A stretch of 64,000 bases of DNA from Escherichia phage 1-6bf. Below the pieces are notes generated by a model. The model made no database searches and was not told the DNA's origin. It saw nothing but the letters and a program-made list of their open reading frames with translations. The first letter of the stretch is position 1. Each line of letters opens with the position of its first letter. Both the position numbers and the translations under genes were made by a program. The stretch is from sequence record OR983334.1. The stretch is one strand, 5' to 3'. This document shows positions 711 through 63,921 of this stretch, piece after piece.

Positions 711-719
711 AAGCTCTCC

Positions 720-1754: not shown

Positions 1755-1755
1755 A

Positions 1756-2790
1756 TTACCAACTCCCTATTCTGATACGGAGTGTACCACTTCCATCATA
1801 AAAATCTATCCTGTTCCCATTCATCCATAGCTGAGAACCACCAGTACCACCCATAACAAAATCACCACCAACAGTCAATCTCCAGTTTGTACCACTCATA
1901 GAACCAGCGGTAATTTTATTAGCAGACAAACTCTGAATCTGTGCGTTTGTGATGTTGACATTATCAATTTGTGCCCACTGTATTCTAGCGTCAGCAATCA
2001 TAGCAGTTGTAATGTTGACATTCTTTATGTCAGCAAACTCCATCTTCGCTCTACCGTTTTCAAAAACAAAAGGAGTGTTACCGGAGCTGCCATCACCAAC
2101 AATAAATTTGTTAGCTGTTACTTGGAATTGACTGTTTGTTCCGTTGTTAGTTAGCTTGACCCCAGCATATTTTCCGTTGATTGTAGAGTTAACACCCCAC
2201 GTAGCTTCATACTCAGAGAGTTTCATATACTGAGAAAGGCTTCCGTTGATATTTTGAATCTCTGTCTGAACTAAAGCGATCTCTTGACCTTGGTCGTTAA
2301 CAATCCCTTCTACCGTTTGAATCTTAGTTGTGTTACCTTCAATACTAGTTTTAAAGCCAGATACAGTGCTTTCTAATTTTACAGGAGGTTGAACAGAATT
2401 ATCCCAAATATCTTCAGTGGATAAGTTCCCCATCTGAGTTTGGATATCTGCAATAGCTGTCTCTATCTCTGTAGTAACTCTATTCTCAAGCTCATCAAAT
2501 TGTAGATTCATCGCATGAAGAGCTTTGATACGAACATCAATCTCATCGTGAATCTCATCAATAGCTTGGAACATTTGGTTAGTAGCTGTACTAACTTTCT
2601 GTAGCTCGTCATATACGGCTACGTTATATGTTTCTGTGTCCTGTACATTATTGAGAAACCCAACGTTGTACGGGAGTGTGGTGTTATTACGACCAGTGTT
2701 CTTACGAAAACCACCTGCACCCATAAGTTCCTCCAAAACAATAAAAGGGGCACGAAGCCCCTTGTTGTTATCTCCGTCCGCCAACAGCAA
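1756..2790 (-). CDS. Tail fiber protein candidate with central coiled coil (344 aa)
   Basis: ORF track; heptad-like central region (NLQFDELENRV..), Gly-rich C-terminus. Confidence 0.4.
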   Translation of the reverse strand: MLLADGDNNKGLRAPFIVLEELMGAGGFRKNTGRNNTTLPYNVGFLNNVQDTETYNVAVYDELQKVSTATNQMFQAIDEIHDEIDVRIKALHAMNLQFDELENRVTTEIETAIADIQTQMGNLSTEDIWDNSVQPPVKLESTVSGFKTSIEGNTTKIQTVEGIVNDQGQEIALVQTEIQNINGSLSQYMKLSEYEATWGVNSTINGKYAGVKLTNNGTNSQFQVTANKFIVGDGSSGNTPFVFENGRAKMEFADIKNVNITTAMIADARIQWAQIDNVNITNAQIQSLSANKITAGSMSGTNWRLTVGGDFVMGGTGGSQLWMNGNRIDFYDGSGTLRIRIGSW

Positions 2791-5779: not shown

Positions 5780-5788
5780 AATTCCTCC

Positions 5789-6592
5789 TTAGCTAATACG
5801 TCTCCAAATGTGAGCCGCTCTGAATGGTGGCAAAGTGTTAATAGGTTGACGAGATATGTCATCACGTCCAAAACTAACAGAACCAGATATTGTGTGAGTA
5901 TGAGTATCAGATTCTGTTCTATGAGTAAACCCAGAACCGGGACTATACCAGTTAGGAGAACTATTGTGACCACTAGCATCCCCACGACCAAAGTTGATAT
6001 TGTGTGAATGGGTGTTACTGGAAACAGAGAAGCTAGAGCCATCAATAGTTATCAACGGTAAGTTCTCTGTCTGGACTGTATTGAAAATCCTACCACCAGT
6101 AGCTCCAGATGTAAACTCAACCCTAGAGGCATTAGGAACTGTACCATCAGGGTTGACCACACCAGTACCCATGATAACACCAGTAACTTTAGACCAAGAG
6201 CCAAACCCAAGAGAGATAGAGTCTCCGGGGTTGATATCCTCTTCAGTGATATAGTAAGAACCAATTCGATAAAGCTTATTCTCCATCCAGTTCTTCATGA
6301 ACGCTTCCATCTGGCCTTTAGTAACAACATCCTTGTCACCAGTTCCCGGAGTAACGTTCTTAATCATAAGACCGCCAACATCCATTGCATCACCAGTAAA
6401 CTTGAGCTTCTCTGACATGATCTTAAAGGTGTCGGAATCTATATCAACTGGCTCAGTTACATTAGGGAATGTGTTCTTTAGTGTTTGTTTAATGAGGCGG
6501 ATTTGGGCCGCCCCTTCGTAGATATAATCCCTATCTCTAGGATAGAGCGGGTTCAGGTCGGTAATCACGACCGCATTAGTTTCAATAGCCAA
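5789..6592 (-). CDS. Tail fiber / tail protein candidate (267 aa)
   Basis: ORF track; Gly/Ser/Thr/His-rich C-terminal part; position in tail gene block. Confidence 0.35.
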   Translation of the reverse strand: MAIETNAVVITDLNPLYPRDRDYIYEGAAQIRLIKQTLKNTFPNVTEPVDIDSDTFKIMSEKLKFTGDAMDVGGLMIKNVTPGTGDKDVVTKGQMEAFMKNWMENKLYRIGSYYITEEDINPGDSISLGFGSWSKVTGVIMGTGVVNPDGTVPNASRVEFTSGATGGRIFNTVQTENLPLITIDGSSFSVSSNTHSHNINFGRGDASGHNSSPNWYSPGSGFTHRTESDTHTHTISGSVSFGRDDISRQPINTLPPFRAAHIWRRIS

Positions 6593-6604
6593 AAGGAACC
6601 TCCA

Positions 6605-7096
6605 TTAATATTTACCTTCGGTATAAAGATCAGCTTCCGCAACCCTTCTGTTATGAAGACCCTGACTTCTCTGCTTCTCTCCCTTAACCGTAATTTTATC
6701 CCAACGTAGAAATTCTGAGTATATATCACCCTTAACCTCTCCATTGATAACTTTCCTTAGCTTAGATGTGCTCAGTGCCCCACTACCAACATTGAAGTTG
6801 AAAGAGGTGAGTGCATCGAACTCATGAACTAGCAAAGGAACCTTTATGTTCTTCTGAGTAGCACGAACAGAGTCTTGTGTGTCTCTATCTAGCAGAGCTA
6901 GACAATCCTCTATAGAATATGTTAATCCTTGCCTAACCGGATAACCATTCATATCGCGCGTAGCCCCTACACAAATCGTCCAGATGCCTGCGGAATCTTT
7001 ATAAGCTTTGGTTCTCATACCCTCATGCTTCATGATGAATTCCATTCCAGCTGGGCTTAAGTTTAGTTGTACAGGTGGCAATGCGACGTTATCCAT
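6605..7096 (-). CDS. Endolysin, T4-type lysozyme (GH24)
   Basis: EFIMKHEGMRTKAYKDSAGIWTICVGAT aligns by eye with the T4 lysozyme catalytic Glu/Asp/Thr triad region. Confidence 0.75.
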   Translation of the reverse strand: MDNVALPPVQLNLSPAGMEFIMKHEGMRTKAYKDSAGIWTICVGATRDMNGYPVRQGLTYSIEDCLALLDRDTQDSVRATQKNIKVPLLVHEFDALTSFNFNVGSGALSTSKLRKVINGEVKGDIYSEFLRWDKITVKGEKQRSQGLHNRRVAEADLYTEGKY

Positions 7097-7125
7097 TTCT
7101 AACCTCCTTTCATGGTCCCTTTAAA

Positions 7126-7344
7126 TTAAGGTAGTATCTTTCTCAGAGCGTTAGATTCAGCATCAGGGCAAATAACAACCAAATTGTTTTGAATGGTTCG
7201 CTGCTTGCATTGTGAACTGAGTTTCTCTACTGGAGCAGGAGTAGTGACTAAAGGGTGGACTGCATTAACAGGAACTGCTGTTGATACAACAACTCCAGCA
7301 CCTAAGCAAACTAAACCGTATGCAGCTTGTTTCATCATTTTCAT
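7126..7344 (-). CDS. Small secreted Pro-rich protein, lysis-accessory candidate
   Basis: N-terminal signal-peptide-like segment MKMMKQAAYGLVCLGAGVVVSTAVPVNA; lies directly upstream of the endolysin gene. Confidence 0.3.
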   Translation of the reverse strand: MKMMKQAAYGLVCLGAGVVVSTAVPVNAVHPLVTTPAPVEKLSSQCKQRTIQNNLVVICPDAESNALRKILP

Positions 7345-7397
7345 CTTAGTGTCTCCTATATATTAACCTTTCATTCATATTGAATTCATTATCTGTC

Positions 7398-7432
7398 TCA
7401 CCTAAATACTACTAAAACCCTCCGAAGAGGGT
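7398..7432 (-). terminator. Rho-independent terminator after tail fiber gene
   Basis: Minus-strand hairpin AACCCTCTTCGGAGGGTT followed by a T-rich run. Confidence 0.45.
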
Positions 7433-7484
7433 TATTAGATTTAGCTATAAGATGCATCAACTGCACAAGAAAAACAGTGACCAC

Positions 7485-10400
7485 TTATTTTTTCTCTAGC
7501 AGTTCCAGTCGCTTGATAATATCCTGCAAGCAAGACACTATCGGAGAGATGAACTCACCGTAGCGAAGACCAAGCTTACCGTCCTCACCTTCAACGTACC
7601 CACCGAAGTCGGAGATTCCCAACTTGTCTACGAGATCCTTAACTTCCTGTGCGATGAATCCATAGTGCGTACGTTTACCCGGTACTTCCGTAATAACTTG
7701 GCGAGTTTTAGGAACGGTTACTTTCTCCATCAACGGTGTTTTGATTGTTCCAATGACATTACCTAGCTCATCACGCAGATCAACCTCATGGAATACTGGA
7801 CGCTCTACTTCCTTGTCAACGAACTTACGGACGTAATAGACTTCATCTCCATCAACAACACGTTCGTGGACTTCTTCAGTTGAAACAACCTTTTCTACCA
7901 CCTGACGTTCAATCTCCTCTACACCATCTTCAATCTCTTCTACAATATTCCCACCAACAATGTTTTTGTAAGAAACAGGGTTTAGGCCCAGAATAAAGTC
8001 TGTAGATAGATTGGATCCTTGAACTTCGGTTTTTGTCGTCCCATCAGAAGTCTGGATAGTAGCGTTCGATGACCATATCTGTGACCACCTATTCCCAGAC
8101 TTACCACACGAATAGATGTTATCTACATATGGATACATCGCGGCGTTAACACCTACCTCGGAGTGGAACACAACCTTACCTGCACCTTTAGACTTAATAG
8201 TTAACGACGCATCCGGTGTAGATCCACCAGAGACTGTAACGGTGGCGTTGCCATTCCTGTTGTCCAGCATGATTTGTGGGTTAGAGGTTTGGCTATAGGG
8301 TACATATAACGGCCCGTTCCCGTAGTTACCACCGAGGGTTACATCTCCATTGGCTGCGGAGATAATGCTTCTTCGCATCTGCCCGTTATCTTCCCAACCA
8401 GATCCAATGTAGAGTGGATACTGCTCATTCGCTGGGTTACTAGCAGCAGCGTGCAATGCGTAATATCCACTATTATTGGCAATGAGACTAATATTTTCCT
8501 CAAAGCCAGCATCATTGATACGATGAACCCGAAGTGCACTGTTGAGGTTGTTAACTGTACCCCAGAATTTATATTCTGTTGATGCTGAATCCCCCGGAGC
8601 AGAACTAAGGGTAACATGCTGAGGGTCTGTAAAAGCCACTACGCGGTAGTCGACACCATTAATAGTCATTGTCTGAGGTACTGATGCGTCGGGAATCACA
8701 AACGGATCACCACTAATGCGGGTTACAGTAGTGCCGGATACACTGCATACACCACTGCCGTGGTAGTAACACAAGCTGTACGAGTGGGTTGCATTTGATC
8801 CCCAAGTAACAGGTGACCCATTGATATTTTTAACAGTAAAACCATCTGCTGTTACGGATGCTACAGTATAAAGTGCATCATAGATAGCAATAGGTTTACC
8901 GATCGCTTCAGATGTAATGCTAGCACCAGACAGGATTTTTACAGCATTGCTGCCTGAGATTGTCTGACATGACCCGGATTTAGAACTTGGATATATCGCC
9001 ATTTCTGTAGGGTGAGGCCATTTAGATGCACGAACACCTAACCACCCAGAACTACCATCGGTAAACATTCTAATACCATCAGCACCGTTATATGGCACAG
9101 CCCCACCAATCTGAATTCCGGTTGACGTCACTCCGTTATCACCGAAAACAGCAGATGTGGTCATCCTCTCAGTAGTTCCTGGCTTAGCCCATTGGGAAAC
9201 TTTAGTTGTCCCATCCGACATAATGCGATTTACAATAGCACCATAGAATTTACCAGCACCAGTAAATGTCACTGGTTCTTCAAATACGAAACGGCGACCG
9301 TAACATTCTACATTACTATTGAGGAGGTATGTCCCGCTTGGAACAATGATCTCACGACTTTTAGGTAGAAGTGTGTTGGCAGAAATAAAGGAACTTGCAG
9401 CATCCGTAGTGCCGTTGTATTTATCACCAAGAAAGTCAAGAATGCTACTGAATTGTGCATTTATGTCATGCTGAGTACGAGCCGCAGCGCCAGCGAAAGG
9501 AGCCTTGACCCCAATTAGTGCATCACCTTGAGCTACGTTAGACGTATTAGAAAGCTGAGCTGTTGGTACACGACTATCCGCATTAGTATTAGCAGCAGCA
9601 GCAGCATCTTTAGCTTCGTTAATCTTCGTTTCAAGTAATGCAGTTTCAGTAGACAGTTGACCGAGAGCTACTGGTTCGTTGTTAGCTACTGCATCAGGAA
9701 TCACTGGAGACTGCGTGAAAGTAACCTTGTTAGTCATTGAGGTTATATCAGAGTTAGCCCCACTTTTAGCAGCAACAAGAGACATACGCGCTGCATCTGC
9801 TGTTGTTGCCCCAGTGCCACCCTGTCCAACCCCTAACGGTATCCAACCTGTTCCAGTGCTGCTGCCCCATGCACCGTTATCCTGGATACGCAAGCGGTTG
9901 GAACCGTTGGCTGTAAGGAAATCGCTATAACTACCACCTTGTATTACGCGGTTGACACCGAGATTCTCTCTGGCACTGACCACCGTTGTTGCCCCCGTAC
10001 CTCCATTAACAATAGGTACAGTGTCCAAAGTAGAAATAGGTCCAAGTCCTAGATTAGTTCTTGCACCAGCAGCATCTCTTGCCCCTGTACCACCTTGATT
10101 TACTTTAAGAGCAATAGGTCCTGTACCTGTTGAGGAATAACACCCCCAAGTGTCGCCATCTTTGTTTACGTATAAAAAAGCGCTACCTGTTCCATTACGT
10201 AGCTGAGTTTCACCGCTAGTTAACTGAGTAAGACGGTCAACTGAGAGATTTATACGAGCATTAGCAGCATCTTTTGCCCCTGTACCACCTTGAGCTACAG
10301 ATAGGGCAGTAGTCAACCCACGAATCTGGTTAATATCGTTGTTAACGCCAGAAGCAGCTGCGCCAGTAACTTGACTTACTGTGTAGTCTCCAGCAGCCGG

Positions 10401-11081
10401 AATAACAGGACCAGTACGACCATTGAAACTAACAACTGCTGGAACAAGCTTAGCAATCTCACTCATTGGAGTTCGATACAAACCACCATTGTCTTTGTCC
10501 ACAAAGAACCCATAATCATCAGCTACAGGAGTGCTTATAGCTACATCCCCAATATCAGAGATTGTACCATCTGTTCCATCTTTACCGGGCTGGCCTTCAG
10601 GGATACCAAAGGAGAAAACACCTGTACTATTATCAAAACTCCCAGTTGCGGGTGCTCCCGGAGGAAGGGTTGTGGCAACAACCGACATATTAGAAACCTT
10701 ATCTAATTGAGTAAGAACATCTTGCACTGCTTGGTTGGCTCGATCTGTTGCTGCATTAGCTTCGCCAATAGCAGTATTAGTGTTGTCAACAGCTTCGACC
10801 GTTTGCTGAATAAGACCAAGAAGCATTTGGTTTTGGTTTTCAAAATCAAATTTGAGTTGTTCAATATCTTCTTTTAATAAACTACCTTCTGCATAGAGTC
10901 TTTCTACTTCCTTAAGAATTTCATCAATGCTGTTGTAGTTCTTTTGAGAAAGCATCGCCCAATACTTGGAATCAGCTGCGTATTCAGCTGCTGATTTGTA
11001 AGCACCGATAGAGCCTTCTGTAGCACCAAACTGACCTACATTATTAACTGCATTAGGTGCTGAGTTGTTGTAACTGATCAT
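7485..11081 (-). CDS. Tail fiber with internal QGGTGA repeats and C-terminal S74-type intramolecular chaperone domain (1198 aa)
   Basis: Four copies of QGGTGA..AA.AR.NL; C-terminal ..THYGFIAQEVKDLVDKLGISDFGGYVEGEDGKLGLRYGE resembles the auto-cleaving chaperone domain of phage fibers. Confidence 0.6.
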   Translation of the reverse strand: MISYNNSAPNAVNNVGQFGATEGSIGAYKSAAEYAADSKYWAMLSQKNYNSIDEILKEVERLYAEGSLLKEDIEQLKFDFENQNQMLLGLIQQTVEAVDNTNTAIGEANAATDRANQAVQDVLTQLDKVSNMSVVATTLPPGAPATGSFDNSTGVFSFGIPEGQPGKDGTDGTISDIGDVAISTPVADDYGFFVDKDNGGLYRTPMSEIAKLVPAVVSFNGRTGPVIPAAGDYTVSQVTGAAASGVNNDINQIRGLTTALSVAQGGTGAKDAANARINLSVDRLTQLTSGETQLRNGTGSAFLYVNKDGDTWGCYSSTGTGPIALKVNQGGTGARDAAGARTNLGLGPISTLDTVPIVNGGTGATTVVSARENLGVNRVIQGGSYSDFLTANGSNRLRIQDNGAWGSSTGTGWIPLGVGQGGTGATTADAARMSLVAAKSGANSDITSMTNKVTFTQSPVIPDAVANNEPVALGQLSTETALLETKINEAKDAAAAANTNADSRVPTAQLSNTSNVAQGDALIGVKAPFAGAAARTQHDINAQFSSILDFLGDKYNGTTDAASSFISANTLLPKSREIIVPSGTYLLNSNVECYGRRFVFEEPVTFTGAGKFYGAIVNRIMSDGTTKVSQWAKPGTTERMTTSAVFGDNGVTSTGIQIGGAVPYNGADGIRMFTDGSSGWLGVRASKWPHPTEMAIYPSSKSGSCQTISGSNAVKILSGASITSEAIGKPIAIYDALYTVASVTADGFTVKNINGSPVTWGSNATHSYSLCYYHGSGVCSVSGTTVTRISGDPFVIPDASVPQTMTINGVDYRVVAFTDPQHVTLSSAPGDSASTEYKFWGTVNNLNSALRVHRINDAGFEENISLIANNSGYYALHAAASNPANEQYPLYIGSGWEDNGQMRRSIISAANGDVTLGGNYGNGPLYVPYSQTSNPQIMLDNRNGNATVTVSGGSTPDASLTIKSKGAGKVVFHSEVGVNAAMYPYVDNIYSCGKSGNRWSQIWSSNATIQTSDGTTKTEVQGSNLSTDFILGLNPVSYKNIVGGNIVEEIEDGVEEIERQVVEKVVSTEEVHERVVDGDEVYYVRKFVDKEVERPVFHEVDLRDELGNVIGTIKTPLMEKVTVPKTRQVITEVPGKRTHYGFIAQEVKDLVDKLGISDFGGYVEGEDGKLGLRYGEFISPIVSCLQDIIKRLELLEKK

Positions 11082-11090
11082 AAAATCTCC

Positions 11091-11840
11091 TTATACTCTA
11101 GAGGTACGTATTCCATAAATATCTGGCAGGCTACTCTGAAGTCTGGTCATGTTGTTGGGTATCGCAATAGGAGAACCTGAGTACTCCTGTTTCTTATCTT
11201 GCTCAACCATCTCATCAAGAATAGCCTTACCTAACGCAGACCATTTTTGAACACCGTTATCATCCTGAACAAAAAGACATGCATGCCTAAGGGTAAAGTA
11301 TAGAAGAAGTTCTGGAGCAATCGTAAGTATTGCACTAGTATCTTCGTCTGCGTGAAACTCCGGAGGATCTGCATAATAGCTTAGAATTACAGAGTTCTCT
11401 GCTGGAATAGCAGGACTTCCATCTTCAGGGTAAACAGGGGTATCAGCATCAATCAGTGGATAGAACAAGAAACGACTTCCGAAACGAGCAAAATTAACAG
11501 GTTGATTATTCCAGTGAGAGGGGTTAATTGTGCCATGCTGTTTACGATAGCTTATCTCTTCTGGGGAAGTTACTTGGAATATTGCTCCATCTTTAGCTCT
11601 CATTATCCATTGAGCTTGCAAGTAGTCCGGTGGGATGAATGCTATACCATTCTTGATACTCAGATACACTTCCTTTTCCAGAGGAGGGATACGTAAGTTG
11701 CGATAAATCTCTTTCTCTGCAAAATTAATAAAGTTTGGAATTTGATTAACAAATTCGTCATCGTCCCTATCTGCCCAGAGGGCCACGGCTTTCTTTAGCC
11801 ACCCATAGGTATTGATGGGATATTGGACGTCAGGCATCAT
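11091..11840 (-). CDS. Virion structural protein (adaptor or tail tubular candidate)
   Basis: ORF track; position between capsid block and tail fiber; no motif recognised. Confidence 0.3.
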   Translation of the reverse strand: MMPDVQYPINTYGWLKKAVALWADRDDDEFVNQIPNFINFAEKEIYRNLRIPPLEKEVYLSIKNGIAFIPPDYLQAQWIMRAKDGAIFQVTSPEEISYRKQHGTINPSHWNNQPVNFARFGSRFLFYPLIDADTPVYPEDGSPAIPAENSVILSYYADPPEFHADEDTSAILTIAPELLLYFTLRHACLFVQDDNGVQKWSALGKAILDEMVEQDKKQEYSGSPIAIPNNMTRLQSSLPDIYGIRTSRV

Positions 11841-12342
11841 AATAAACCTCCTTCCAGTTTACGCCTTTAGTAATGAGAGATATTGTGCTTTTAGAGACCC
11901 CAAACTTTCTAGCTAAGGCTCTAGCTCCAAACTCTCTATCTCTCGGTTTGTAGTTCTCCAAACAAAAGAGAACTTGCTCTTTAGTGAGTTTGGAATTAGG
12001 GTTATCCTCAAGACTCCTAGGTGTTGAGAGGCCTGTTTCAAAAGCATGTGTACAATTTTCTTGTTGAGTACACCACTCTAGATTCTCAATCCTGTTATCG
12101 TCTTTTATTCCATTCTTATGGTTGACACAGTCCTTCCCTTCTACCTTAGGAAGAAAGAGTTCAGCTATGACCCTATGCTCTAAATATGATTTCTTTTTAA
12201 AAGTCACTTTACGATAACCTCTGTCGCCAATACACCCGGCACGTTGTCCTTTCTGCTTATTAAAGATGTTACTCATAGACCAGAAAAGATGCCCTGTATT
12301 TGGATCATAGGTAAAAGCTTCTCTGAAATCTGGCATTGCCAT
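11830..12342 (-). CDS. HNH homing endonuclease
   Basis: CVNHKNGIKDDNRIENLEWCTQQEN HNH motif plus C-terminal HTH-like segment. Confidence 0.75.
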   Translation of the reverse strand: MAMPDFREAFTYDPNTGHLFWSMSNIFNKQKGQRAGCIGDRGYRKVTFKKKSYLEHRVIAELFLPKVEGKDCVNHKNGIKDDNRIENLEWCTQQENCTHAFETGLSTPRSLEDNPNSKLTKEQVLFCLENYKPRDREFGARALARKFGVSKSTISLITKGVNWKEVYYDA

Positions 12343-12410
12343 AGGTTGTCCTCCTTGTTATATGTAGACAAAGAATATACATTACACACTAGCTTGTATA
12401 GGTCTTAAAA

Positions 12411-12438
12411 CGAAAAAACCCCGCCCGAAGGCAGGGTC
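12411..12438 (-). terminator. Rho-independent terminator downstream of capsid gene
   Basis: Minus-strand ACCCTGCCTTCGGGCGGGG hairpin followed by TTTTTTCG. Confidence 0.5.
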
Positions 12439-12443
12439 TAGTT

Positions 12444-12987
12444 TTAAGCAGGTGTTACACCAGTAAAAGTGCATGTTGCATTGATGGACGGGTCAGCTGT
12501 CAAACTTGCTTGAACAGTAACTTCGCCACTTGCAGCAGCATCTAAGGTTAACGCACCAGCGGCGCTTACTGTACCAGCTTCTATAGGAGTTACAACAAAC
12601 GTGTAATCCGCAGCAGCAGAATTAGTTACAGTAAACATGGTAGTGAAATTAGTGGAGGAACCACCAGTTTTACCCGTAATTGGACCCTTAGCTACAATAG
12701 TAGGAGCAGGAGCAACAATTTCAGAAATGGTTGCTGTACCAGAAACACCTTCTAAAGTTGCAGTAATGGATACATCAGTGGATTGAGACGCACTCGGAGC
12801 AGTATACAAACCCGACTGAGTGATAGAACCACCGCCTGTCACTGACCAAGTAAAGCCAGTTGTTTCGGTAGAACCATCACTTTTCTCCGCGCTTGCAGTG
12901 AACTGCCGAGTAGCCCCTGTCTCTAGACTTGATAAAGACGCAGGGCTAACAGTCACACTGTCTACTGTTACGCCGCCACCTTTCCCG
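12444..12987 (-). CDS. Ig-like (Big_2-type) C-terminal extension of the capsid protein, in the -1 frame
   Basis: -1 frame is open across the capsid stop codon; reads GKGGGVTVDS then an Ig-like domain (TVSPASLSSLETGATRQFTASA..). Confidence 0.5.
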
Positions 12988-14026
12988 CAGCAGTGAACAG
13001 AACGCCGGAAGCATACGGGTTGCGGTGACGCAGACCAACTTCCATTTCAATCATCCACTTCTCGTAAGAACCGTCTTTAGCCAGTTCAGTACGTTTCGGA
13101 GCACGCAGAACCATCTGAGTCCAGTCAGCGCTACGGAAGAAGTAAACTGCATCGGTAGGCATCCAACGGTTAACGATGATTTTGTAGCTCTGGCCCAGCG
13201 GGTCAGTGATGCTGTTAACTTCGTAGATGAACTGCTTGGTGTTCTCAAAGATACGCTTACGTGAACCCTGAGTATTTTCTTGCAGACCAGCGAAGATCTT
13301 AGCATGAGCTGGGTTAATCATGATGATATCTGCTTCAGAACCAGCGGTATACAGTTGCAGAGTCATATCAAAGATATCAGCTTCGTCAAAACCAATGTTA
13401 GTGGTCGGGTTAGAAGCATTCTGTGCAACTTTAACAGTTACTGCACCAGTATCTGGGTCAGCAGGACCATTCTTGGTCTTGTCAACAACACCACCAGCCA
13501 GACCGCCGTGAGCACACAGGAACTGGAATGCACCAGTCTTACGAGCTGCATGAGTGTCGTTCAGACCAACAGTTGCAGGATCAGTTGCAGAGTTAGTCAG
13601 GTACTGGTCAGCCAGAACGTCGGTACGAGCCTGACCGGATAGAAGGATTTTCTCGAGGTCACGCTTGATCTCTTTACCTTTCTTCTCCAGCTGATACATC
13701 AGTTCACGACCACGACCGTAGTTAGCGGTGGTGTTAGCAGTATCAGAAACGCGAACAACCTTACGCAGAATCTGAGTAACGTTAGATTTGATAACAGTCG
13801 GTTTCATTTCGCCGTCTTCAGCACGAGAGCCTTCGACGTGTGCGTTATTACCGTCAACGCTTGCCAGTGCATCGGTCTGCCAGCTAAAGATAGTCTGGTT
13901 AATAGACTCTTTACCGGTCATGGATACGAACGGGGTATCCTGAGGGGACAGAACAGAAATCCAGTTAGCAAAAGAAAGTTTTTTACCATTCTGGTCATAC
14001 GATACAAATAAAGTTGGATTAGCCAT
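12968..14026 (-). CDS. Major capsid protein (352 aa)
   Basis: Position after portal and scaffold, size, strong downstream terminator, frameshift-linked Ig extension. Confidence 0.6.
   Translation of the reverse strand: MANPTLFVSYDQNGKKLSFANWISVLSPQDTPFVSMTGKESINQTIFSWQTDALASVDGNNAHVEGSRAEDGEMKPTVIKSNVTQILRKVVRVSDTANTTANYGRGRELMYQLEKKGKEIKRDLEKILLSGQARTDVLADQYLTNSATDPATVGLNDTHAARKTGAFQFLCAHGGLAGGVVDKTKNGPADPDTGAVTVKVAQNASNPTTNIGFDEADIFDMTLQLYTAGSEADIIMINPAHAKIFAGLQENTQGSRKRIFENTKQFIYEVNSITDPLGQSYKIIVNRWMPTDAVYFFRSADWTQMVLRAPKRTELAKDGSYEKWMIEMEVGLRHRNPYASGVLFTAAGKVAA
12981..12987 (-). other. Candidate -1 programmed ribosomal frameshift site (slippery heptamer G_GGA_AAG)
   Basis: mRNA GCG GGA AAG GUG GCG GCG UAA; heptamer GGGAAAG fits X_XXY_YYZ, four codons before the capsid stop. 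Confidence 0.5.
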
Positions 14027-14067
14027 GTTATGTTAGCTCCTATACTATTAATAATTTAATTTGTCGA

Positions 14068-15144
14068 TTAATCTACGAGGAATTTGAATGCGTCTTCGTG
14101 ACTAACGCGACCCTCTGCGAATGCCTTGGCAACCTTAGCGTTGTCGGGCTTATTGGAAGTGCGAGACTTTGCAGCATCAGACTTCACAACCTTGCGTGGA
14201 GCACCGGGACGTTTAATCTTAGCCATCACCTGTTGCTTACCTTTATCAAATTGGTATGCTTTGTGGAGAGCTAGGAAAATAGACGGACGGTTTTCCTTCA
14301 ATACTTCTTCTTCAGTAGCACCTAAGTCAATTGCGTATTGCATTAAGTTTTGATATAAGTTTTCATCCCAATTTGGAATCTCACGTTTCAGAATATTAAC
14401 ACATTCAATACTCTTGGCTTGGAAAGCTTCCTGCTCTTTAGCTGCTGCTTCCTGCTTAATACGGACCTGAGCCTGTTCAAGCTGTTGACGGCGAGCTGTG
14501 TACTTCTCTAGGAAACGTTTGTTTTCAACATATGCTTGAGGATCTTCTACTGCAAGCTTGTCCCAATCAAAACCGTTATAATCTTCAATTACTCGGTCTG
14601 CTTCTAAAGACGCTAGTTCTAATACATCCTTCAAACCTACTACACGTTCCTCAAATGCTTCCATATGACGCTGAAGAGTAGTCTCTCGTTCCGTCATATC
14701 GGCACCAGTAAGATAGCCATTAGAAAGTTCTTCAATAGTCATCTCACGTCCGTCAGGAAGGGTGATAACGGTTTCGTAGTCTACATCAAAGACTTCACCT
14801 TCACCGTCAGCAGAATCATCTTCATATTCTGCATCGCTTGAATCTTCTTCCTCTTGCTCTTCTGCTTCAGAGGAGTCTTCTTCATCTTCTTCGACTTCGC
14901 CTTCCTCTTCACGATCTTCCCAACCATCTTCATCTTCGAACTTAAGCTCATCGCTTTCACCGAGAAGGTCGGTATCAAAGTCGAAATCGTCACCGTCTTT
15001 TTCCGGGAACTCATCGTCAATGTCCACTTCTGGTTCTTGTTCAGATTCTAATCGACCGAGTTCTTCTTTGAAAGAACCTTTCAGGTCATCCAGTTGGAGG
15101 AAAGATTTAAAATCGTTCGGGTCAATATAATTATCTTGTGGCAT
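14068..15144 (-). CDS. Scaffolding protein candidate
   Basis: Highly acidic N-terminal half and helical, charged C-terminal half; sits between portal and capsid genes. Confidence 0.45.
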   Translation of the reverse strand: MPQDNYIDPNDFKSFLQLDDLKGSFKEELGRLESEQEPEVDIDDEFPEKDGDDFDFDTDLLGESDELKFEDEDGWEDREEEGEVEEDEEDSSEAEEQEEEDSSDAEYEDDSADGEGEVFDVDYETVITLPDGREMTIEELSNGYLTGADMTERETTLQRHMEAFEERVVGLKDVLELASLEADRVIEDYNGFDWDKLAVEDPQAYVENKRFLEKYTARRQQLEQAQVRIKQEAAAKEQEAFQAKSIECVNILKREIPNWDENLYQNLMQYAIDLGATEEEVLKENRPSIFLALHKAYQFDKGKQQVMAKIKRPGAPRKVVKSDAAKSRTSNKPDNAKVAKAFAEGRVSHEDAFKFLVD

Positions 15145-15380
15145 TATGAAACATCTCCTGCACTATTGATAGCAGCTTTTATGACCTCTTTTAAGCTACC
15201 CACCATTTTATACTTTTGATAACAATCTTCGCGTTTCTTATTCTCATGAGGTTCTGTTTGAACTATCTCTGTCATGAGTCTTTCTTTCAATGCCTCTAAT
15301 GCTGCGTCAAGACTGCCGTTAAGGTTGAGAGCCGCCAAAGCGGCGGCGTGCTCTTTATTAAATTGATGTCTAATGTTCAT
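15144..15380 (-). CDS. Hypothetical protein (78 aa)
   Basis: ORF track; start overlaps scaffold gene end. Confidence 0.3.
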   Translation of the reverse strand: MNIRHQFNKEHAAALAALNLNGSLDAALEALKERLMTEIVQTEPHENKKREDCYQKYKMVGSLKEVIKAAINSAGDVS

Positions 15381-15389
15381 TCGACGTCC

Positions 15390-17633
15390 TTAGTTTTTAC
15401 TTCCAAGACGTTTGCCTGGAATCCGTGAATCTTTGAGAGAAGCTTGTTGCTCTTTCTTAGTTACATTAGCTTCTTTCTTTTGGAGTTCCAAAGTTTTATC
15501 CTGAACACGAGCTTGCTGAACAATCTTCTCTTGGTCTACCTGATGAGACATAACCATCTGCAATTCTTTCAGTACAGATTCATACTGACGGACCTGCTGT
15601 TGCATAAGAGCTAACTTGTGCTTAGCTTGTTCCAGAGTAGCATTGTTATCTTCTTTACGGTTTTCCAGAGTCATTGCATCTGCTGCATTTTCTTGCTTGA
15701 ATTGCAACTCTTCCTGACGCAGACTTAATTCATCCGCAGCTTTCTGCTGTTCGAATGTAGTACGTTCACGTTGGTCGAATGCATCAGCAATCATCTTCTG
15801 AGAAGAAGCCTGTACGTTCTCAACCTGTGCTTTAGTCATCTCGAGCTGGAGGATTTCCATCGGAGAAGGTTCTGGAGGCTGATACTGTTCCAGAGGCAGA
15901 AGGTATTTATGTGTGTCCTTAATGCCCATCAACTCAAAGATCTGTGCAGTCATGTAACGATCTTGCTCCAAACCAAAGAGAGGTGCTAACTGTGCATCTG
16001 CTGCAATCAGCTGCTTCAAGCTAATCAGTTTCTGTGCACGTTCTGCTTTCTCATTAGGAGAAATGGCTACAACAACTTGAAGGTTGTGACGAGCTGGCAA
16101 TTGTTTCGGATTTACCTGAATCATACCACGAGGGGTTTGTACCTCGATAGGAACTTCACCATTTTCTCTGATAAGATTGTAAATACCACGCATCAATTCA
16201 ACCATACCATTGTGAGCAATGTTACGACATACCATACGGAGACGGTTCTGTGCAGCATTCATCATCAAGCCTACGGTTGCATAAGCGTTATCATTCTTAA
16301 ACACATCAGGGTTGATACCCATGCCAAGTTTAGTTACACCTGTACGTGTCTCTTTAAGCTCCTCAGACATACCTAGGAGGCCATCAATACCTTGAGGTAA
16401 GTTATGGTATGGGAACAGGTCAATAGCGTCCTGACGTTCCATTTCAACCACTCCACCGGGACGGTTATCAAGCAGAGAGCGACGATCGTATGCACCAACA
16501 AGAGCTTTGTATCGACCATAGTTAGCATTGTTGACGTTATCAATATAACCACGAACTAACGCGGTACGTAAATCTTGAATATCTTTCGTAATGTCATAGA
16601 CCGATTGACCATAGAAGGAACCCGGAATCGGATACGGGCAGAAGGTTACAAACGGAATGTGAGTCACTTCTTCAGTGTGAAGGATATGCTCACCAGCTTG
16701 AATAACCTGATAGAGTTTAGACTCTTTATTCTTATCTAGAACACCAGTACGAATGTAGTGCTCATAAACCCAAACCATAGAAGCAATGTCTTCGGTATCT
16801 GTACCAATATCAGCATCAATATCCTGACGCCAGTCAGTACGAGACCAAGCAACTGTAGATTGAGTAGTGTCCATCGTGTCTGTCCAGTCGTTGAATGCTT
16901 CAATCTCATCTTTAGGGAAGCCCATGGCAACCAGATCTTCTTTAGAACGACGTACACGATGGCAGAAGTATTGTGCATCTGCAAAAGAGGTAGCATGTTC
17001 GTCAACAAAGATTTGCTCTGAAGGAACATATTCAACTTTCACACGTTTGACAGTTTGTTCGTAAGTAACTTTAACATCTACTGTACCATCTTCATTTTCT
17101 TCAGTGAAGATTTCCAGATTCTTGAGTCCACCAGCTTCTAGTCCCTGAACATATGCAGCCAATGCTTCCGGTGGTACACCTTCAGCCTCTTCAGTTTGAG
17201 TAGAAGTTTGCTCATCCCAATAATATTTGATAAAAGAGTTACGAGTAACCAGACATTCTTGTGCAGCAGAAGAGATAATATTGTATCCCGGATTATCACG
17301 CAGAAGAATTTGGTTAACTAATTTAGTTGCTACATCAGCAGCATCAGAATCCTGTTGGTTGTCAGCTACGAAAGTAACTGCTTCATCACCAGAACAGAAT
17401 ACGTTAATAATATCTTGCAATGTACCGTTAACAGATTCCCAAACAGTACGATCTACCCAACTAGAGCTGCCAGCAGTTACTGGTGCAGGTAAGTTACCAT
17501 AGAAATATTCCCAAGCTTCACGAGCATAGCCCTTAACAGCTGTGTCTACGTAGCCTTGAGCATAATTAAAACGACGTTGAAGGTCAACACGTAACTCGTC
17601 CAACACCTCTTCACTATATTTTTGCTTAGCCAT
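15390..17633 (-). CDS. Portal protein candidate (747 aa)
   Basis: Size and position immediately after terminase large subunit; C-terminal coiled-coil/charged tail. Confidence 0.5.
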   Translation of the reverse strand: MAKQKYSEEVLDELRVDLQRRFNYAQGYVDTAVKGYAREAWEYFYGNLPAPVTAGSSSWVDRTVWESVNGTLQDIINVFCSGDEAVTFVADNQQDSDAADVATKLVNQILLRDNPGYNIISSAAQECLVTRNSFIKYYWDEQTSTQTEEAEGVPPEALAAYVQGLEAGGLKNLEIFTEENEDGTVDVKVTYEQTVKRVKVEYVPSEQIFVDEHATSFADAQYFCHRVRRSKEDLVAMGFPKDEIEAFNDWTDTMDTTQSTVAWSRTDWRQDIDADIGTDTEDIASMVWVYEHYIRTGVLDKNKESKLYQVIQAGEHILHTEEVTHIPFVTFCPYPIPGSFYGQSVYDITKDIQDLRTALVRGYIDNVNNANYGRYKALVGAYDRRSLLDNRPGGVVEMERQDAIDLFPYHNLPQGIDGLLGMSEELKETRTGVTKLGMGINPDVFKNDNAYATVGLMMNAAQNRLRMVCRNIAHNGMVELMRGIYNLIRENGEVPIEVQTPRGMIQVNPKQLPARHNLQVVVAISPNEKAERAQKLISLKQLIAADAQLAPLFGLEQDRYMTAQIFELMGIKDTHKYLLPLEQYQPPEPSPMEILQLEMTKAQVENVQASSQKMIADAFDQRERTTFEQQKAADELSLRQEELQFKQENAADAMTLENRKEDNNATLEQAKHKLALMQQQVRQYESVLKELQMVMSHQVDQEKIVQQARVQDKTLELQKKEANVTKKEQQASLKDSRIPGKRLGSKN

Positions 17634-30901: not shown

Positions 30902-31149
30902 AAAACTTTCAAGCTGCACCAATCACTAAAGTGATCGAAGTTGACGGTGTGATGATGACTGTTCCTCTGAACACTCGTTACATTGCAATTGACAAGATGG
31001 GTTATGTATGGGCTTGGAAGATTAAGCCTAGCTATAACGCATTGTTTGATGAGTTTGTTTGCACTGGTACGTACAGTCCTACATTCTTGGGTTTGTTTAG
31101 TGAGTTTGATGGTCAGTATAAAATCATCACTCTCCCTGCTTGTGCTTGA
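30898..31149 (+). CDS. Hypothetical protein (83 aa)
   Basis: ORF track. Confidence 0.3.
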   Translation: MKNFQAAPITKVIEVDGVMMTVPLNTRYIAIDKMGYVWAWKIKPSYNALFDEFVCTGTYSPTFLGLFSEFDGQYKIITLPACA

Positions 31150-31156
31150 GGTTAAT

Positions 31157-31318
31157 ATGTTCAAGTGGCTAAAGCGTGTCTTTCATTGTCATGATTGGAA
31201 GATTATTAATACTCGCCCTCTGGTCTATACAGATTCAGATGGGAATAACGACAAGGGCACACGTTACGTTATTCAGTGTAAGGTGTGTGGTGATGTTAGT
31301 CATCGTGATGTAATCTAA
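31157..31318 (+). CDS. Small protein, paralog family B member 1 (53 aa)
   Basis: MFKWLKRVFHCHDW..CKVCGD; below ORF-track cutoff, supported by paralogy. Confidence 0.4.
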   Translation: MFKWLKRVFHCHDWKIINTRPLVYTDSDGNNDKGTRYVIQCKVCGDVSHRDVI

Positions 31319-31327
31319 GGAATCATT

Positions 31328-31492
31328 ATGATCAAATGGTTCAAACGCTTCTTTCATTTCCATGAGTGGGAAGATCTTCATACTTATGAACTGACGATCA
31401 CAAATAAACTTACTGACAGAGAGCGACAAGGGTTGCGTATCTACTCTCGCTGTAAAGTGTGTGGTCTGCACAAGAAAACAGATCTGATCTAA
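31328..31492 (+). CDS. Small protein, paralog family B member 2 (54 aa)
   Basis: MIKWFKRFFHFHEW..CKVCGL. Confidence 0.4.
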   Translation: MIKWFKRFFHFHEWEDLHTYELTITNKLTDRERQGLRIYSRCKVCGLHKKTDLI

Positions 31493-31500
31493 GGGGTGTT

Positions 31501-31710
31501 ATGTTCTTTCGTAAGAAAAAGCCCGAAGATTCTGGATGTAAACACGAGTGGGTGATCACTGAGAACCTACATATCACCCACGCTAAAGACACTCCGGTCG
31601 AGAGAAAAGAATCTCGTGTATCTCGTATCTGTAAACACTGTTTGAAAATAGAACAGCATAAAGTTCCCGGTCATATTGGTCACGATGTAGCCATTCGTAT
31701 CTTTAGTTAA
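31501..31710 (+). CDS. Small protein, paralog family B member 3 (69 aa)
   Basis: CKHEW..ICKHCL shares the family B motif. Confidence 0.4.
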   Translation: MFFRKKKPEDSGCKHEWVITENLHITHAKDTPVERKESRVSRICKHCLKIEQHKVPGHIGHDVAIRIFS

Positions 31711-31733
31711 ACAAATCTAGCACCCTTAGCTCA

Positions 31734-32174
31734 ATGGAGGTGGTATTGAAAATAGAGTTGGAATACCCCTTCATCAATGACTGGAGGTTGGGGTATTTAA
31801 GGACAAGTAAGGATGGGAGGAGGCGTGTTGACCTATTCAATTCTAACACAGATAGGACTACGATCTCTTATGCAAGGTATTTAATGTCTTGCCATGTAGG
31901 GAGGTATCTTACTGCGGAGGAAGAGGTAGATCATGTTGATCAAAATCCAACCAATGATGAGATATCTAACCTTCAGATTCTAAGCACAAATGATCACCTA
32001 AAGAAGACCTTAGAGAACAGACCTAAGGGTGTGGTCATTACTTTGATTTGTAGTAATTGTGGCACATCTTTTGAGAGAAGGGGTAACAAGGTCCACAAAG
32101 AAAACCAAAACCATTTTTGTAGTAGGTCTTGCAACGGTAAGTATTACTGGAGCAAGGGTTTCAATAATAAATAA
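31734..32174 (+). CDS. HNH homing endonuclease
   Basis: EVDHVDQNPTNDEISNLQILSTNDH HNH motif plus C-terminal Cys-rich zinc-binding segment. Confidence 0.7.
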   Translation: MEVVLKIELEYPFINDWRLGYLRTSKDGRRRVDLFNSNTDRTTISYARYLMSCHVGRYLTAEEEVDHVDQNPTNDEISNLQILSTNDHLKKTLENRPKGVVITLICSNCGTSFERRGNKVHKENQNHFCSRSCNGKYYWSKGFNNK

Positions 32175-32277
32175 GAGCTTCTAGCGAGGATGTATCTTCC
32201 CCGCCTTCTAAGCGGTCGTTAAAGAAGTAATTGGAGTATGCAGGTTCGAACCCTGTCATCCTCGCTAGAGGCTCTTG
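32172..32277 (+). ncRNA. tRNA-like structured element (about 20 bp outer stem, internal UCU-loop hairpin and T-arm-like hairpin)
   Basis: Outer stem AGAGCTTCTAGCGAGGATG / CATCCTCGCTAGAGGCTCT; inner CCGC-CTTCTAA-GCGG and GCAGG-TTCGAAC-CCTGT; no canonical D-arm. Confidence 0.3.
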
Positions 32278-32287
32278 GAGGTGTGTT

Positions 32288-32569
32288 ATGTCATGGGGTG
32301 GTGTAATATCCTTAATCTGTATCTTCCTTGTCTGCATAGCCCTTACAGGCTGCGTACAGAGCCGTCCTGATGGATGGTGTGCAGTAGCAGTGGAAGGTGT
32401 TTGTGTTTCTCGCTGGCACAAAGGTGAGAAGGTTCCTTCTGGTGAAATTGATATGCGTTACAGTGGTATCTCATGCCTGAACGGTGCAGCAGTAGATGAG
32501 GAAACTAAAACCTTGTCAGATGCACAGTGGTGTGGTGGTTCTGTAACAACAACCGGTAAGGAGTGGTAA
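32288..32569 (+). CDS. Small lipoprotein candidate (superinfection-exclusion-type)
   Basis: MSWGGVISLICIFLVCIALTGCVQ: hydrophobic segment ending in LTGC lipobox, Cys-rich mature part. Confidence 0.4.
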   Translation: MSWGGVISLICIFLVCIALTGCVQSRPDGWCAVAVEGVCVSRWHKGEKVPSGEIDMRYSGISCLNGAAVDEETKTLSDAQWCGGSVTTTGKEW

Positions 32570-32570
32570 T

Positions 32571-32819
32571 ATGACAGCTCATTATTGGAATACAAAGAAG
32601 CTTCTTGAAGAGATGGCTGGAGGTAGTAGGGTACAGCTAATCTCCATGCTTCGAATGGATGCTCGCTCCTTACGCTTCCAAGTAAAGATTGGTAACTTCA
32701 GTGATGGCCTTTATTACACGCTGAAGGAAAGGATCAAGAAGACTCACTTCATCATGTACGGAATCAAACCGAGAACGTACGTTAACTACATGTATTGGAA
32801 TACATGCTACGATAATTGA
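32571..32819 (+). CDS. Hypothetical protein (82 aa)
   Basis: ORF track. Confidence 0.3.
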   Translation: MTAHYWNTKKLLEEMAGGSRVQLISMLRMDARSLRFQVKIGNFSDGLYYTLKERIKKTHFIMYGIKPRTYVNYMYWNTCYDN

Positions 32820-32826
32820 GGTTATT

Positions 32827-33048
32827 ATGAAACTAGACTCTAAGCAGTCACTTAAAACCGCTGAACTGTCCACGCTGCCAAACGGAAGTATCTTTGGTCA
32901 TGATAAACACTTCTGGATTAAAACAGACATCATAGACGATGGGTATATTACCTGTGTCAACCTTTGGAATGGTTCAGTGGATGGTTATCGCCCTAGCGCA
33001 AAGGTAGTCCCTCAGCCCGATGCAAAGGCTATAGGTTTAGTTTACTAA
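32827..33048 (+). CDS. Small protein, paralog family A member 5
   Basis: TLPNGSIFG..FWIKTDIIDDGYITCVNLWNGSV. Confidence 0.45.
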   Translation: MKLDSKQSLKTAELSTLPNGSIFGHDKHFWIKTDIIDDGYITCVNLWNGSVDGYRPSAKVVPQPDAKAIGLVY

Positions 33049-33057
33049 GGAGCCTGT

Positions 33058-33231
33058 ATGAGTTGTTTTGGTGGCGGTGAAGTAGATGACGATGATGACA
33101 TGGAATCAAACGGCACATGTCCTGATTGTGGGTGTGAGACATGGGATGGGGTTTCTGTCTACCCTGCCTGTAGTTATTCACCAGTAATTTGTAAAACATG
33201 CGGTGATCAGCCGTGTGACCAGTCTTGCTAA
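33058..33231 (+). CDS. Candidate small Cys-rich acidic protein (57 aa)
   Basis: MSCFGGGEVDDDDD..CPDCGCE..CKTCGDQPCDQSC; below ORF-track cutoff. Confidence 0.3.
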   Translation: MSCFGGGEVDDDDDMESNGTCPDCGCETWDGVSVYPACSYSPVICKTCGDQPCDQSC

Positions 33232-33844
33232 GAGAATATTATGACTGAAGAATTTTTAAAGTGGTTTGGTGATACCTTCAAAGAGTATCTATTCTCTCCA
33301 GAAGACTTTGAAGAACTGAAAACCTACACTTGGTTGGCTTGGAGAGATAGCCGACGAGAGATGAATAAGTAATATCGTGAAGGATTCTTACGAGAGTCCT
33401 TTGAGATAGGACTTCAGATCTCCTATCAAACTAACATTCATGTAACTAGCCCATAAGGGCGTTACCCTTTAATAACCCAGCCCACTAAGGGGGCGGGAGT
33501 TTAGTGCTGGATTAGCATAACGCTTATTCCTACAAAGGCAACCGATTGTTAGATCTTACATGCAATACTAATTAATAGGATAAGGGAGGATTCGTCCCCT
33601 CCCCCTATTTATAAATTATCAGGAGAGTACTCTAGCTGATTAGCTGTAGAAGGGAGGCCGATATCTACGGCGTGGCCCAGAGCTAGTGTACTCTCCTGAT
33701 GAGGCACCTCCTCATCGTGGTAAGCTGTGGAATAATCTTTACAGCAGTTACTTGAAGTAGCCTGTACGGCCCTCAGCAAAGAGTCCGGACGATATCTGAG
33801 TGACTTTAAAAACAGATGGAGCCAGGTGGAATCCCTGGCAATTA

Positions 33845-63875: not shown

Positions 63876-63895
63876 TAACTCTCCTTGTTATAGCT

Positions 63896-63921
63896 TAGCC
63901 ACCTCCGGGTGGCTTTTTTCG
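63896..63921 (+). terminator. Rho-independent terminator
   Basis: AGCCACCTCCGGGTGGCT followed by TTTTTTCG. Confidence 0.6.

Follow-up and report, generated by a model that had tools for sequence, protein, structure and literature searches.

The DNA analysed here is a stretch of 64,000 nucleotides (nt), referred to as the window, from Escherichia phage 1-6bf (OR983334.1), a phiEco32-like Kuravirus. Its subject is a structured element at positions 32172-32277, which resembles a transfer RNA (tRNA) and probably serves as one for arginine, although its chain is connected differently from that of a cloverleaf. The element is flanked upstream by an HNH endonuclease gene and downstream by a phage lipoprotein gene. 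Its outer stem opens with the three bases of the HNH stop codon, TAA (32172-32174), and runs to the GGAGG preceding the lipoprotein ATG. The parts of the locus are listed below, with lengths in base pairs (bp) or amino acids (aa); pairing and conservation figures refer to the family of related phage elements described further on.

32172-32185, plus strand: extension of the acceptor helix, 14 bp, 5' strand TAAGAGCTTCTAGC, pairing with 32264-32277.
32186-32192, plus strand: acceptor stem 5' strand GAGGATG, positions 1-7, pairing with 32257-32263; all 7 pairs covary and are 98-99% paired.
32193-32195, plus strand: linker U8-A9-U10 (TAT), invariant in 46 distinct sequences.
32196-32199, plus strand: cross-arm helix 5' strand CTTC, family positions 11-14, pairing with GAAG at 32224-32227 and replacing a D-stem strand.
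32200-32216, plus strand: anticodon arm with stem CCCGC/GCGGT, loop CTTCTAA and anticodon TCT at 32207-32209; all 5 pairs covary.
32217-32223, plus strand: linker CGTTAAA, of which CGUUAA is invariant in this subfamily.
32224-32227, plus strand: cross-arm helix 3' strand GAAG, positions 39-42, pairing with 32196-32199.
32228-32239, plus strand: D-loop-like segment TAATTGGAGTAT, positions 43-54, invariant save position 46.
32240-32256, plus strand: T arm GCAGG-TTCGAAC-CCTGT, 99% paired, with three covarying pairs and the loop UUCRANY, as in a cloverleaf.
32257-32264, plus strand: acceptor stem 3' strand CATCCTC and discriminator G (32264), followed by CTA, not CCA.
32264-32277, plus strand: extension 3' strand GCTAGAGGCTCTTG, ending on a base that is also the first G of the downstream gene's ribosome-binding site, GGAGG.
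31734-32174, plus strand: HNH endonuclease gene, 146 aa (Pfam HNH_3, E = 1.8e-5), a neighbour outside the RNA family.
32288-32569, plus strand: phage lipoprotein gene, 93 aa (Pfam Phage_lipoprotein, E = 1.7e-36), syntenic with phiEco32 phi32_106.

A preliminary description made from the sequence had reported a stem of about 20 bp enclosing a UCU hairpin and a T-arm hairpin, and all three lie where it placed them. The stem consists of 21 consecutive pairs, two of them G-U, formed by TAAGAGCTTCTAGC-GAGGATG (32172-32192) with CATCCTC-GCTAGAGGCTCTTG (32257-32277), and the hairpin CCGC-CTTCTAA-GCGG occupies 32201-32215, with TCT at 32207-32209. The RNA of 32165-32285 folds at -47.6 kcal/mol, compared with -29.7 +/- 3.8 kcal/mol for 200 dinucleotide shuffles (z = -4.74), and none of the shuffles (0/200) folded as stably, so the folding check proposed at that time came out in favour of a structure. 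The Rfam tRNA model (RF00005) matches 32186-32264 on the plus strand with 29.7 bits, a marginal pass of the gathering score of 29; together with the sequence, this match bears out a tRNA-like body that has a T arm and an anticodon loop containing UCU. In the Rfam alignment the D-arm is deleted (15 consensus positions being reduced to 4 bases), and the variable region gains 20 bases; the early remark that a D hairpin is lacking after the acceptor stem is correct. Chance cannot account for the structure, since dozens of phages conserve it and show compensatory changes in it; conservation in related genomes, which had been named as a possible ground for refutation if missing, is thus present.

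From 5' to 3', the anatomy comprises a 7-bp acceptor stem, U8-A9-U10, a strand of 3-4 bases of the type CNN, a normal anticodon arm, a linker of 3-8 nt, the complementary NNG strand, the segment UAAYUGGAG-UAU, the T arm, and the 3' strand of the acceptor stem. The window copy has the 7-bp acceptor stem and G73, with CCA unencoded (CTA in its place). Its anticodon loop carries U33 and a purine at 37 on a stem of 5 bp, as a cloverleaf does, and the first pair of that stem is a C-U mismatch. No D-arm hairpin is found between positions 9 and 26, where just 5 bases lead from A9 to the anticodon stem. The region between the anticodon and T stems is also unlike a normal variable region, being 24 bases long and made up of the linker, one strand of the cross-arm helix, and the D-loop-like segment.

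The 79-nt core was matched by BLAST in 144 records of cultured phage genomes, 138 of which cover at least 80% of the core. The matched phages include phi92-like phages, Vequintavirinae, Klebsiella myoviruses, T5-like phages, jumbo coliphages of about 350 kb, and Streptomyces phages, and pattern scans added dozens of further copies in IMG/VR contigs, bringing the IMG/VR loci to more than 70. Most copies sit within phage tRNA arrays. Those in cultured phages are nearly all unannotated, apart from a few labelled tRNA-OTHER or tRNA-Undet and one mislabelled tRNA-Val(aac). The element is absent from 5,426 complete E. coli genomes, and among 185,579 bacterial and archaeal species genomes the family pattern matched only two contigs of metagenome-assembled genomes; the family is apparently phage-restricted. 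An integration (attP-like) site was briefly considered and dropped, as the element matches none of the E. coli genomes; Kuraviruses are lytic phages. No account of the family was found in the searchable full-text literature, for which conserved strings were also used, subscription-only papers being outside reach.

Two alignments of distinct sequences were built, with n = 34 and then n = 46. A covariance model from 34 members scores the family at 74-104 bits, against at most 32 bits for canonical tRNAs of the same loci. A looser pattern gave many chance matches, which were filtered by acceptor, anticodon, and T-stem pairing to leave 60 distinct members; a mis-spaced 17-base pattern, used as a background estimate, gave 15 chance matches. 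The 60 members form four subfamilies with linkers of 8, 5, 4, and 3 nt, the spacer from the anticodon stem to the GAG strand being 8 nt in the subfamily of the window copy and 3-5 nt in the others. At the locus of Klebsiella phage Roth37, a second feature labelled tRNA-OTHER (L049, 1607-1691) has no relation to this family and combines a tRNA-like 5' part and a T arm with an apparent GC-rich insertion of about 20 nt.

The acceptor, anticodon, and T helices are 96-99% paired in the family, and nearly every pair shows compensatory changes, while shuffle and slide controls gave far lower values. No member has a D hairpin; in its place, bases 11-13 reach over the anticodon arm to pair with bases 40-42 on its 3' side. 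As a guard against ascertainment bias, a scan was run with positions 38-41 and the whole 5' half left free and G42 fixed, and three Watson-Crick pairs at 11-13/40-42 were present in 51/51 distinct sequences of that scan. Six versions of this cross-arm helix occur, namely CUC/GAG (34 sequences), CGC/GCG (6), CUU/AAG (3), CAG/CUG (3), CAC/GUG (3), and CAU/AUG (2). Pairs 12-41 and 13-40 are Watson-Crick in 46/46, with the types UA, AU, and GC at the former and CG, UA, and GC at the latter. The window copy has the CUU/AAG version, extended by a fourth pair, C14-G39. Pairing across the anticodon arm suggests that the D-stem has been kept and would be closed by the anticodon arm, not by a D loop. 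Among the early suggestions, a permuted tRNA comes closest and holds in part: the D-stem appears to form across the anticodon arm, with the D-loop-like sequence 3' of it.

The segment that follows the cross-arm helix, UAAYUGGAG-UAU, is invariant but for one position, and its AAUUGGA also occurs in the D loop of phiEco32 tRNA-Arg (AATTGGACA). In the analysed loci, AAYTGGA is found in the D region of 4/20 canonical arginine tRNAs versus 6/399 other tRNAs (Fisher p = 6.7e-4). The D-loop nucleotides, equivalent to A14, A15, G18, G19, and A20, would then reach the elbow from the 3' side, and the molecule could adopt an L-shape with a different chain connectivity. When bases 40-53 were moved between positions 9 and 10, ARAGORN called tRNA-Arg(tct), a call that shuffled segments also received in 172/300 and 276/300 cases (57-92%); the re-ordering thus does not discriminate and carries no weight here.

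All anticodons in the 60 distinct members are arginine anticodons (UCU 53, CCU 4, ACG 3), and no non-arginine anticodon was found by anticodon-free patterns or by the covariance model on the loci collected by then. The loop CUUCUA(A/C) is invariant in the subfamily of the window copy, with CCU or ACG appearing in other subfamilies. Previous work showed that the arginine identity set of E. coli comprises A20, C35, U/G36, and A/G73, and that A20 as a main determinant is unique to arginine among tRNA families (PMC9976931). C35 is present in 60/60 members, U or G stands at position 36, and most members have G or A at position 73, few having U; the window copy, with its U-C-U anticodon and G73, agrees with the set at all three positions. 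In addition, an invariant GGA motif lies at 32233-32235, within the sequence that matches the phiEco32 tRNA-Arg D loop. G3-U70 is the main identity element of alanyl-tRNA synthetase (PMC5389517). A G3-U70 wobble (alignment pair 3-76) was observed in 7/46 members, for example at loci L009, L018, L028, and L047, and the window copy has G3-C70; a dual arginine/alanine identity is possible for the Klebsiella, T5-like, and jumbo-phage copies.

The distribution of arginine tRNAs in the arrays follows a complementary pattern. A canonical tRNA-Arg with the same anticodon is present in only 2/74 member loci, and canonical arginine tRNAs with other anticodons in 13 of 74. Locus L110 holds a UCU member with canonical CCU, UCG, and ACG genes among its 33 tRNAs, L052 an ACG member with canonical UCU, and L037 both ACG and UCU members with canonical UCG. 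The ACG member of L037 shows that the fold is specific for arginine and not for UCU. This locus is a jumbo-phage contig (IMG/VR 3300037466_002593), in which the ACG member (2689-2763, plus strand) has the loop CUACGAA, a 3-nt linker UCA, and an encoded U73-CCA; the canonical tRNA-Arg(UCG) at 2773-2849 adjoins it, and the UCU member lies at 4029-4107. We regard the complementary filling of slots as the strongest indirect evidence for a putative role as an arginine isoacceptor.

The slot is also filled in the Kuraviruses. The lipoprotein gene of phiEco32, an orthologue of that in the window, is immediately preceded by a canonical tRNA-Arg(UCU) with an encoded CCA. Kuravirus-like phages have been reported to possess just one tRNA, Arg(UCU), matching a 4-6-fold excess of AGA over the host (PMC9965538), and AGA makes up 16-27% of the arginine codons in the open reading frames of the window. 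ARAGORN found zero tRNAs in the 64-kb window and none in the parts of the Escherichia phage 1-6af genome outside it. Therefore, the rewired element is the only tRNA-like gene in this phage, and it stands at the usual position of the canonical tRNA-Arg(UCU). Positions 31000-33500 are 100% identical to phage 1-6af and 99.7% identical to phage FH3; 1-6af and the window share 98.7-100% identity over all stretches compared. As seen from window positions 1-16274 and 63379-64000, the 64-kb stretch is circularly permuted and reverse-complemented relative to the 1-6af record (OR983333.1), of which about 16.4-29.5 kb is not included. At about 9.8-10.3 kb of the window, within a 3.1-kb coding sequence of OR983333.1, the alignment is broken and identity falls to 98.6-98.7%.

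The over-extended acceptor helix noted at the outset is real and amounts to a 14-bp extension. CCA follows directly after position 73 in 34/60 members, and pairing past the acceptor stem is absent there (at most 7/12 positions). Among the CCA-less members, 12/26 prolong the acceptor helix by about 13-19 pairs, discriminator included, and these extension-type copies include the window copy and those of Bas93, SSBI34, A73, and HC-25922. Pairing in the 21-bp helix reaches 96.5% over 11 extension-type members, and both sides have changed at 18/21 pairs, which argues that the extension is selected as a helix and not as a sequence. The ends of the extension have features in common in the window (32172-32177 and 32272-32281) and at L004, L005, L007, L014, L023, and L100: the 5' base is purine-rich, often with a stop codon (TAAGAG, TGAAAG, TGAGAG, GTAGAG), and the 3' side has a CTCTT or CTTTT run, often followed by a ribosome-binding site, while the remaining extension sequence differs. 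We infer that the extension may be an alternative maturation device for CCA-less copies, by which the RNA would be excised from a longer transcript before CCA is added.

An RNase III processing site needs about two helical turns of uninterrupted duplex RNA, and the 21 continuous pairs of the element provide such a duplex. That RNase III acts on the extension is thus a reasonable guess from duplex length alone, and of the RNase III-type processing site that had been proposed for the whole structure, a role for the 14-bp extension only is plausible. A stronger form of this idea holds that the long hairpin itself is the functional unit, as an RNase III-type site or a terminator-like stabiliser between the HNH and lipoprotein cistrons, with an incidental tRNA-like interior. 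Its 21 continuous pairs span from the HNH stop codon to the ribosome-binding site of the lipoprotein gene, covariation in the extension is seen in 11 lineages, and the promoter/terminator scan gave no sigma-70-like promoter just upstream of the element. However, the same scan gave no terminator-like site at the element, the extension occurs in only about 12/60 members while 48 keep the interior without it (34 of these with CCA), and the interior is more conserved than the extension, which makes a function of the hairpin alone very improbable.

The neighbouring HNH gene raises a different explanation, namely that the element is a decayed tRNA pseudogene, or the scar or target of an adjacent homing endonuclease, as the preliminary description had considered in proposing a degenerate tRNA or an HNH insertion target. 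The missing D-arm, the absent CCA, and the marginal gene-finder scores would fit decay, and in the window, SSBI34, and Roth37 an HNH gene stands right beside the element. Decay is contradicted by conservation: the element is 105/106 identical to that of Bas93, whereas identity in the flanks is 86-91% (85.7% for the HNH gene and 91.1% for the lipoprotein gene), the sole difference turns a G-U pair of the extension into A-U, and the helices covary in more than 70 loci. The element is thus under strong purifying selection, which, together with the family-wide covariation, does not support a degenerate tRNA.

A scar or target fares no better. An HNH gene adjoins the element upstream in the window and Bas93 and downstream in SSBI34 and Roth37, and the element occurs without any HNH gene in Bas94, HC-25922, phi92-like phages, and most tRNA arrays. 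The window HNH protein is 87% identical to that of Bas93 and 46% identical to an HNH protein next to tRNA-Asn in jumbo phage Turkey5; with the flanking HNH proteins of SSBI34 and Roth37 it has only the HNH motif in common, so that these three are non-orthologous. A dedicated HNH-element cassette was ruled out for the same reason, as the neighbouring HNH proteins share the motif only. Moreover, the homology between the window and Bas94 begins precisely with base 1 of the acceptor stem; this, and the occurrence of the element without HNH elsewhere, argues that the HNH gene is an independent insertion beside a conserved RNA gene. Such an insertion fits the free-standing homing endonucleases known from phage tRNA regions, such as SegB (PMC13096335). 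Taken together, a pseudogene or an HNH scar is the least credible of the explanations considered, with hardly any weight left to it.

Two further observations concern these regions. In Escherichia phage Turkey5 (L047), whose genome is about 350 kb, a group I intron (Rfam RF00028, 95 bits) at 4205-4518 lies just upstream of the HNH gene at 4583-5287, which encodes the protein 46% identical to the window HNH, and both stand in the tRNA region. In Escherichia phage HC-25922 (L007, about 1590-1620), a fragment like the 3' half of another tRNA (GTAGGAGGGTTCGAATCCTTCCGTCCCG) lies about 20 nt downstream of the element, with no ARAGORN call, and it may be the remnant of a displaced canonical tRNA.

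Comparison across the family makes it probable that the element is a working non-canonical tRNA-Arg(UCU) gene that replaces the cloverleaf isoacceptor. In this phage, the gene, having neither a promoter-like site of its own nor an encoded CCA, would be co-transcribed with the HNH and lipoprotein genes. It would then be excised from the polycistronic transcript via the 21-bp helix of acceptor stem and extension, by host RNase III and/or by RNase P with 3' trimming, and CCA would be supplied by the host CCA-adding enzyme. Charging by the host arginyl-tRNA synthetase (ArgRS) would proceed through C35, U36, G73, and the A of the retained GGA motif, and the product would decode AGA codons, which account for 16-27% of the arginine codons of this phage. 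An engineered D-arm-less tRNA was accepted by E. coli histidyl-tRNA synthetase (HisRS), EF-Tu, and the ribosome without adaptation, PNPase being the main obstacle (PMC11551756), which makes function of the element in vivo plausible. The wider proposal, that the family is a previously undescribed class of arginine tRNAs with rewired topology, used by phages from widely separate lineages, charged by host ArgRS and active on the ribosome in hosts from E. coli to Streptomyces, is more tentative, and we would put it at slightly below even chances.

Several points weigh against a working tRNA-Arg(UCU). ARAGORN calls no tRNA at the element in bacterial or mitochondrial mode, so that the gene-finder check suggested earlier turned out negative, and the Rfam tRNA score is marginal at 29.7 bits here and 32-39 bits in other members, compared with mostly 45-77 bits in canonical neighbours. 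The window copy encodes CTA instead of CCA, and because its 5' leader is entirely base-paired to its 3' trailer, RNase P cleavage and maturation of the 3' end could be impeded. Loci L021 and L138 hold both a member and a canonical tRNA-Arg(UCU), so replacement is not always simple. The equivalence to an L-shaped tRNA in three dimensions is argued from sequence alone, and the putative function of every family member rests on comparative evidence. Finally, in the subfamily of the window copy RNAalifold favours an invariant GUUA/UAAY hairpin (33-36/43-46). As a general feature this hairpin was rejected, since it shows no covariation, pair 33-46 is broken in three sequences, and the segment is missing in short-linker subfamilies; it could coexist with the cross-arm helix only as a subfamily-specific pseudoknot. 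At L021, the canonical and the rewired tRNA-Arg(UCU) are adjacent (1522-1598 and 1614-1692, minus strand), and the rewired copy is of the extension type.

The two loci with both genes also bear on another possibility, in which the element is a tRNA-Arg mimic outside translation, acting either as a decoy for an anticodon nuclease or another tRNA-targeting defence, or as a binder or regulator of ArgRS. Single-stranded segments of the family are far more conserved than those of ordinary tRNAs (35 invariant columns), as might be expected of a mimic, and precedents exist in which altered phage tRNAs counter tRNA-targeting defences: the variable loop of T5 tRNA-Tyr confers resistance to retron-Eco7 and Septu (PMC13096335), and PARIS is countered by phage tRNAs (PMC12409363). 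However, slot filling at 74 loci and the encoded CCA of most members fit a working adaptor better, as do the normal 7/5 acceptor-T branch and the replacement of the only tRNA of Kuraviruses, and no arginine-specific defence nuclease was identified in this analysis. A mimic is thus unlikely, although it deserves consideration more than the hairpin or the pseudogene does.

If the element is used in translation as a tRNA-Arg(UCU), it would be a counter-example to the rule that the tRNAs of bacterial translation are cloverleaves, and it would explain the apparent lack of a tRNA gene in a Kuravirus whose arginine codons are 16-27% AGA. It would also reveal a blind spot of phage annotation, in which phages seem to have no tRNA-Arg(UCU) because the copy they carry is, like most of the 144 in cultured phages, left unannotated. 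A functional element would offer a natural scaffold for probing how far ArgRS, EF-Tu, RNase P, modification enzymes, and the ribosome tolerate an altered topology, and it would add a new candidate to the contest between phages and tRNA-targeting immunity. Strict confinement to arginine isoacceptors and viruses would, if true, mean that the fold is selected, for example as an escape from a host nuclease or other defence that recognises canonical tRNA-Arg. By analogy with known phage tRNAs, escape from tRNA-targeting immunity may be an attractive idea for the retention of the fold; alternatively, the fold may persist as a rearrangement tolerated only by ArgRS, with its D-loop-centred recognition.

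Among known systems, the closest is the tRNA-Arg of phiEco32, which has the same Kuravirus slot and the same UCU anticodon, with the loop UUUCUAA there and CUUCUAA here. The T arms are near-identical (GCAGGTTCGAAYCCTGT in the element and ACAGGTTCGAATCCTGT in phiEco32 tRNA-Arg), and both share the D-loop motif AAUUGGA and the 7/5 acceptor branch. Compared with a canonical tRNA-Arg, such as E. coli argU, the host tRNA-Arg(UCU), the element has no local D hairpin; its D-stem strands flank the anticodon arm, and the D-loop-like bases follow that arm. The core is about 78-79 nt long, and the window copy lacks CCA and carries the 14-bp acceptor extension.

Permuted or split tRNA genes and viral tRNA-like structures, such as that of turnip yellow mosaic virus, likewise obtain a tRNA shape from a connectivity other than that of the cloverleaf. 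Permuted genes yield a canonical mature tRNA after processing, and the viral structures occupy the 3' termini of their genomes and lack an anticodon with a decoding role. Unlike both, the element has normal ends, and its rearrangement is internal and permanent. RNase III hairpins of the T7 type are duplexes of about 20 bp between two cistrons of one transcript; the element differs from these in being capped by a whole tRNA-like body, and its extension is dispensable in most members.

Absence of the D hairpin, with retention of the acceptor, anticodon, and T arms, is shared with D-arm-less mitochondrial tRNAs (nematode and mammalian mt-tRNA-Ser(UCU/GCU)) and the engineered mini HisT (PMC7609411, PMC11551756). 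The mitochondrial D-arm-less tRNAs are shortened and have lost D-loop nucleotides (PMC7609411), whereas members of the present family are longer than a normal tRNA, keep the G-G-A elbow motif and a D-stem-like helix, and occur in viruses of bacteria with standard translation machinery. The allo-tRNAs and the (8/4) tRNA-Ser and tRNA-His from bacteria and phages are also non-canonical, were mined from sequences, and partly come from phage tRNA clusters (PMC5389517). They have an acceptor/T split of 8/4 or 9/3 and keep the D hairpin and a long variable arm (PMC5389517), in contrast to the 7/5 split and rearranged D region of the element. A 2020 review of non-canonical tRNAs includes no phage case (PMC7609411). 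Because the element passes the Rfam threshold but has neither a D hairpin nor a normal variable region, it is filed here as a new structural variant of tRNA, and not as a standard member.

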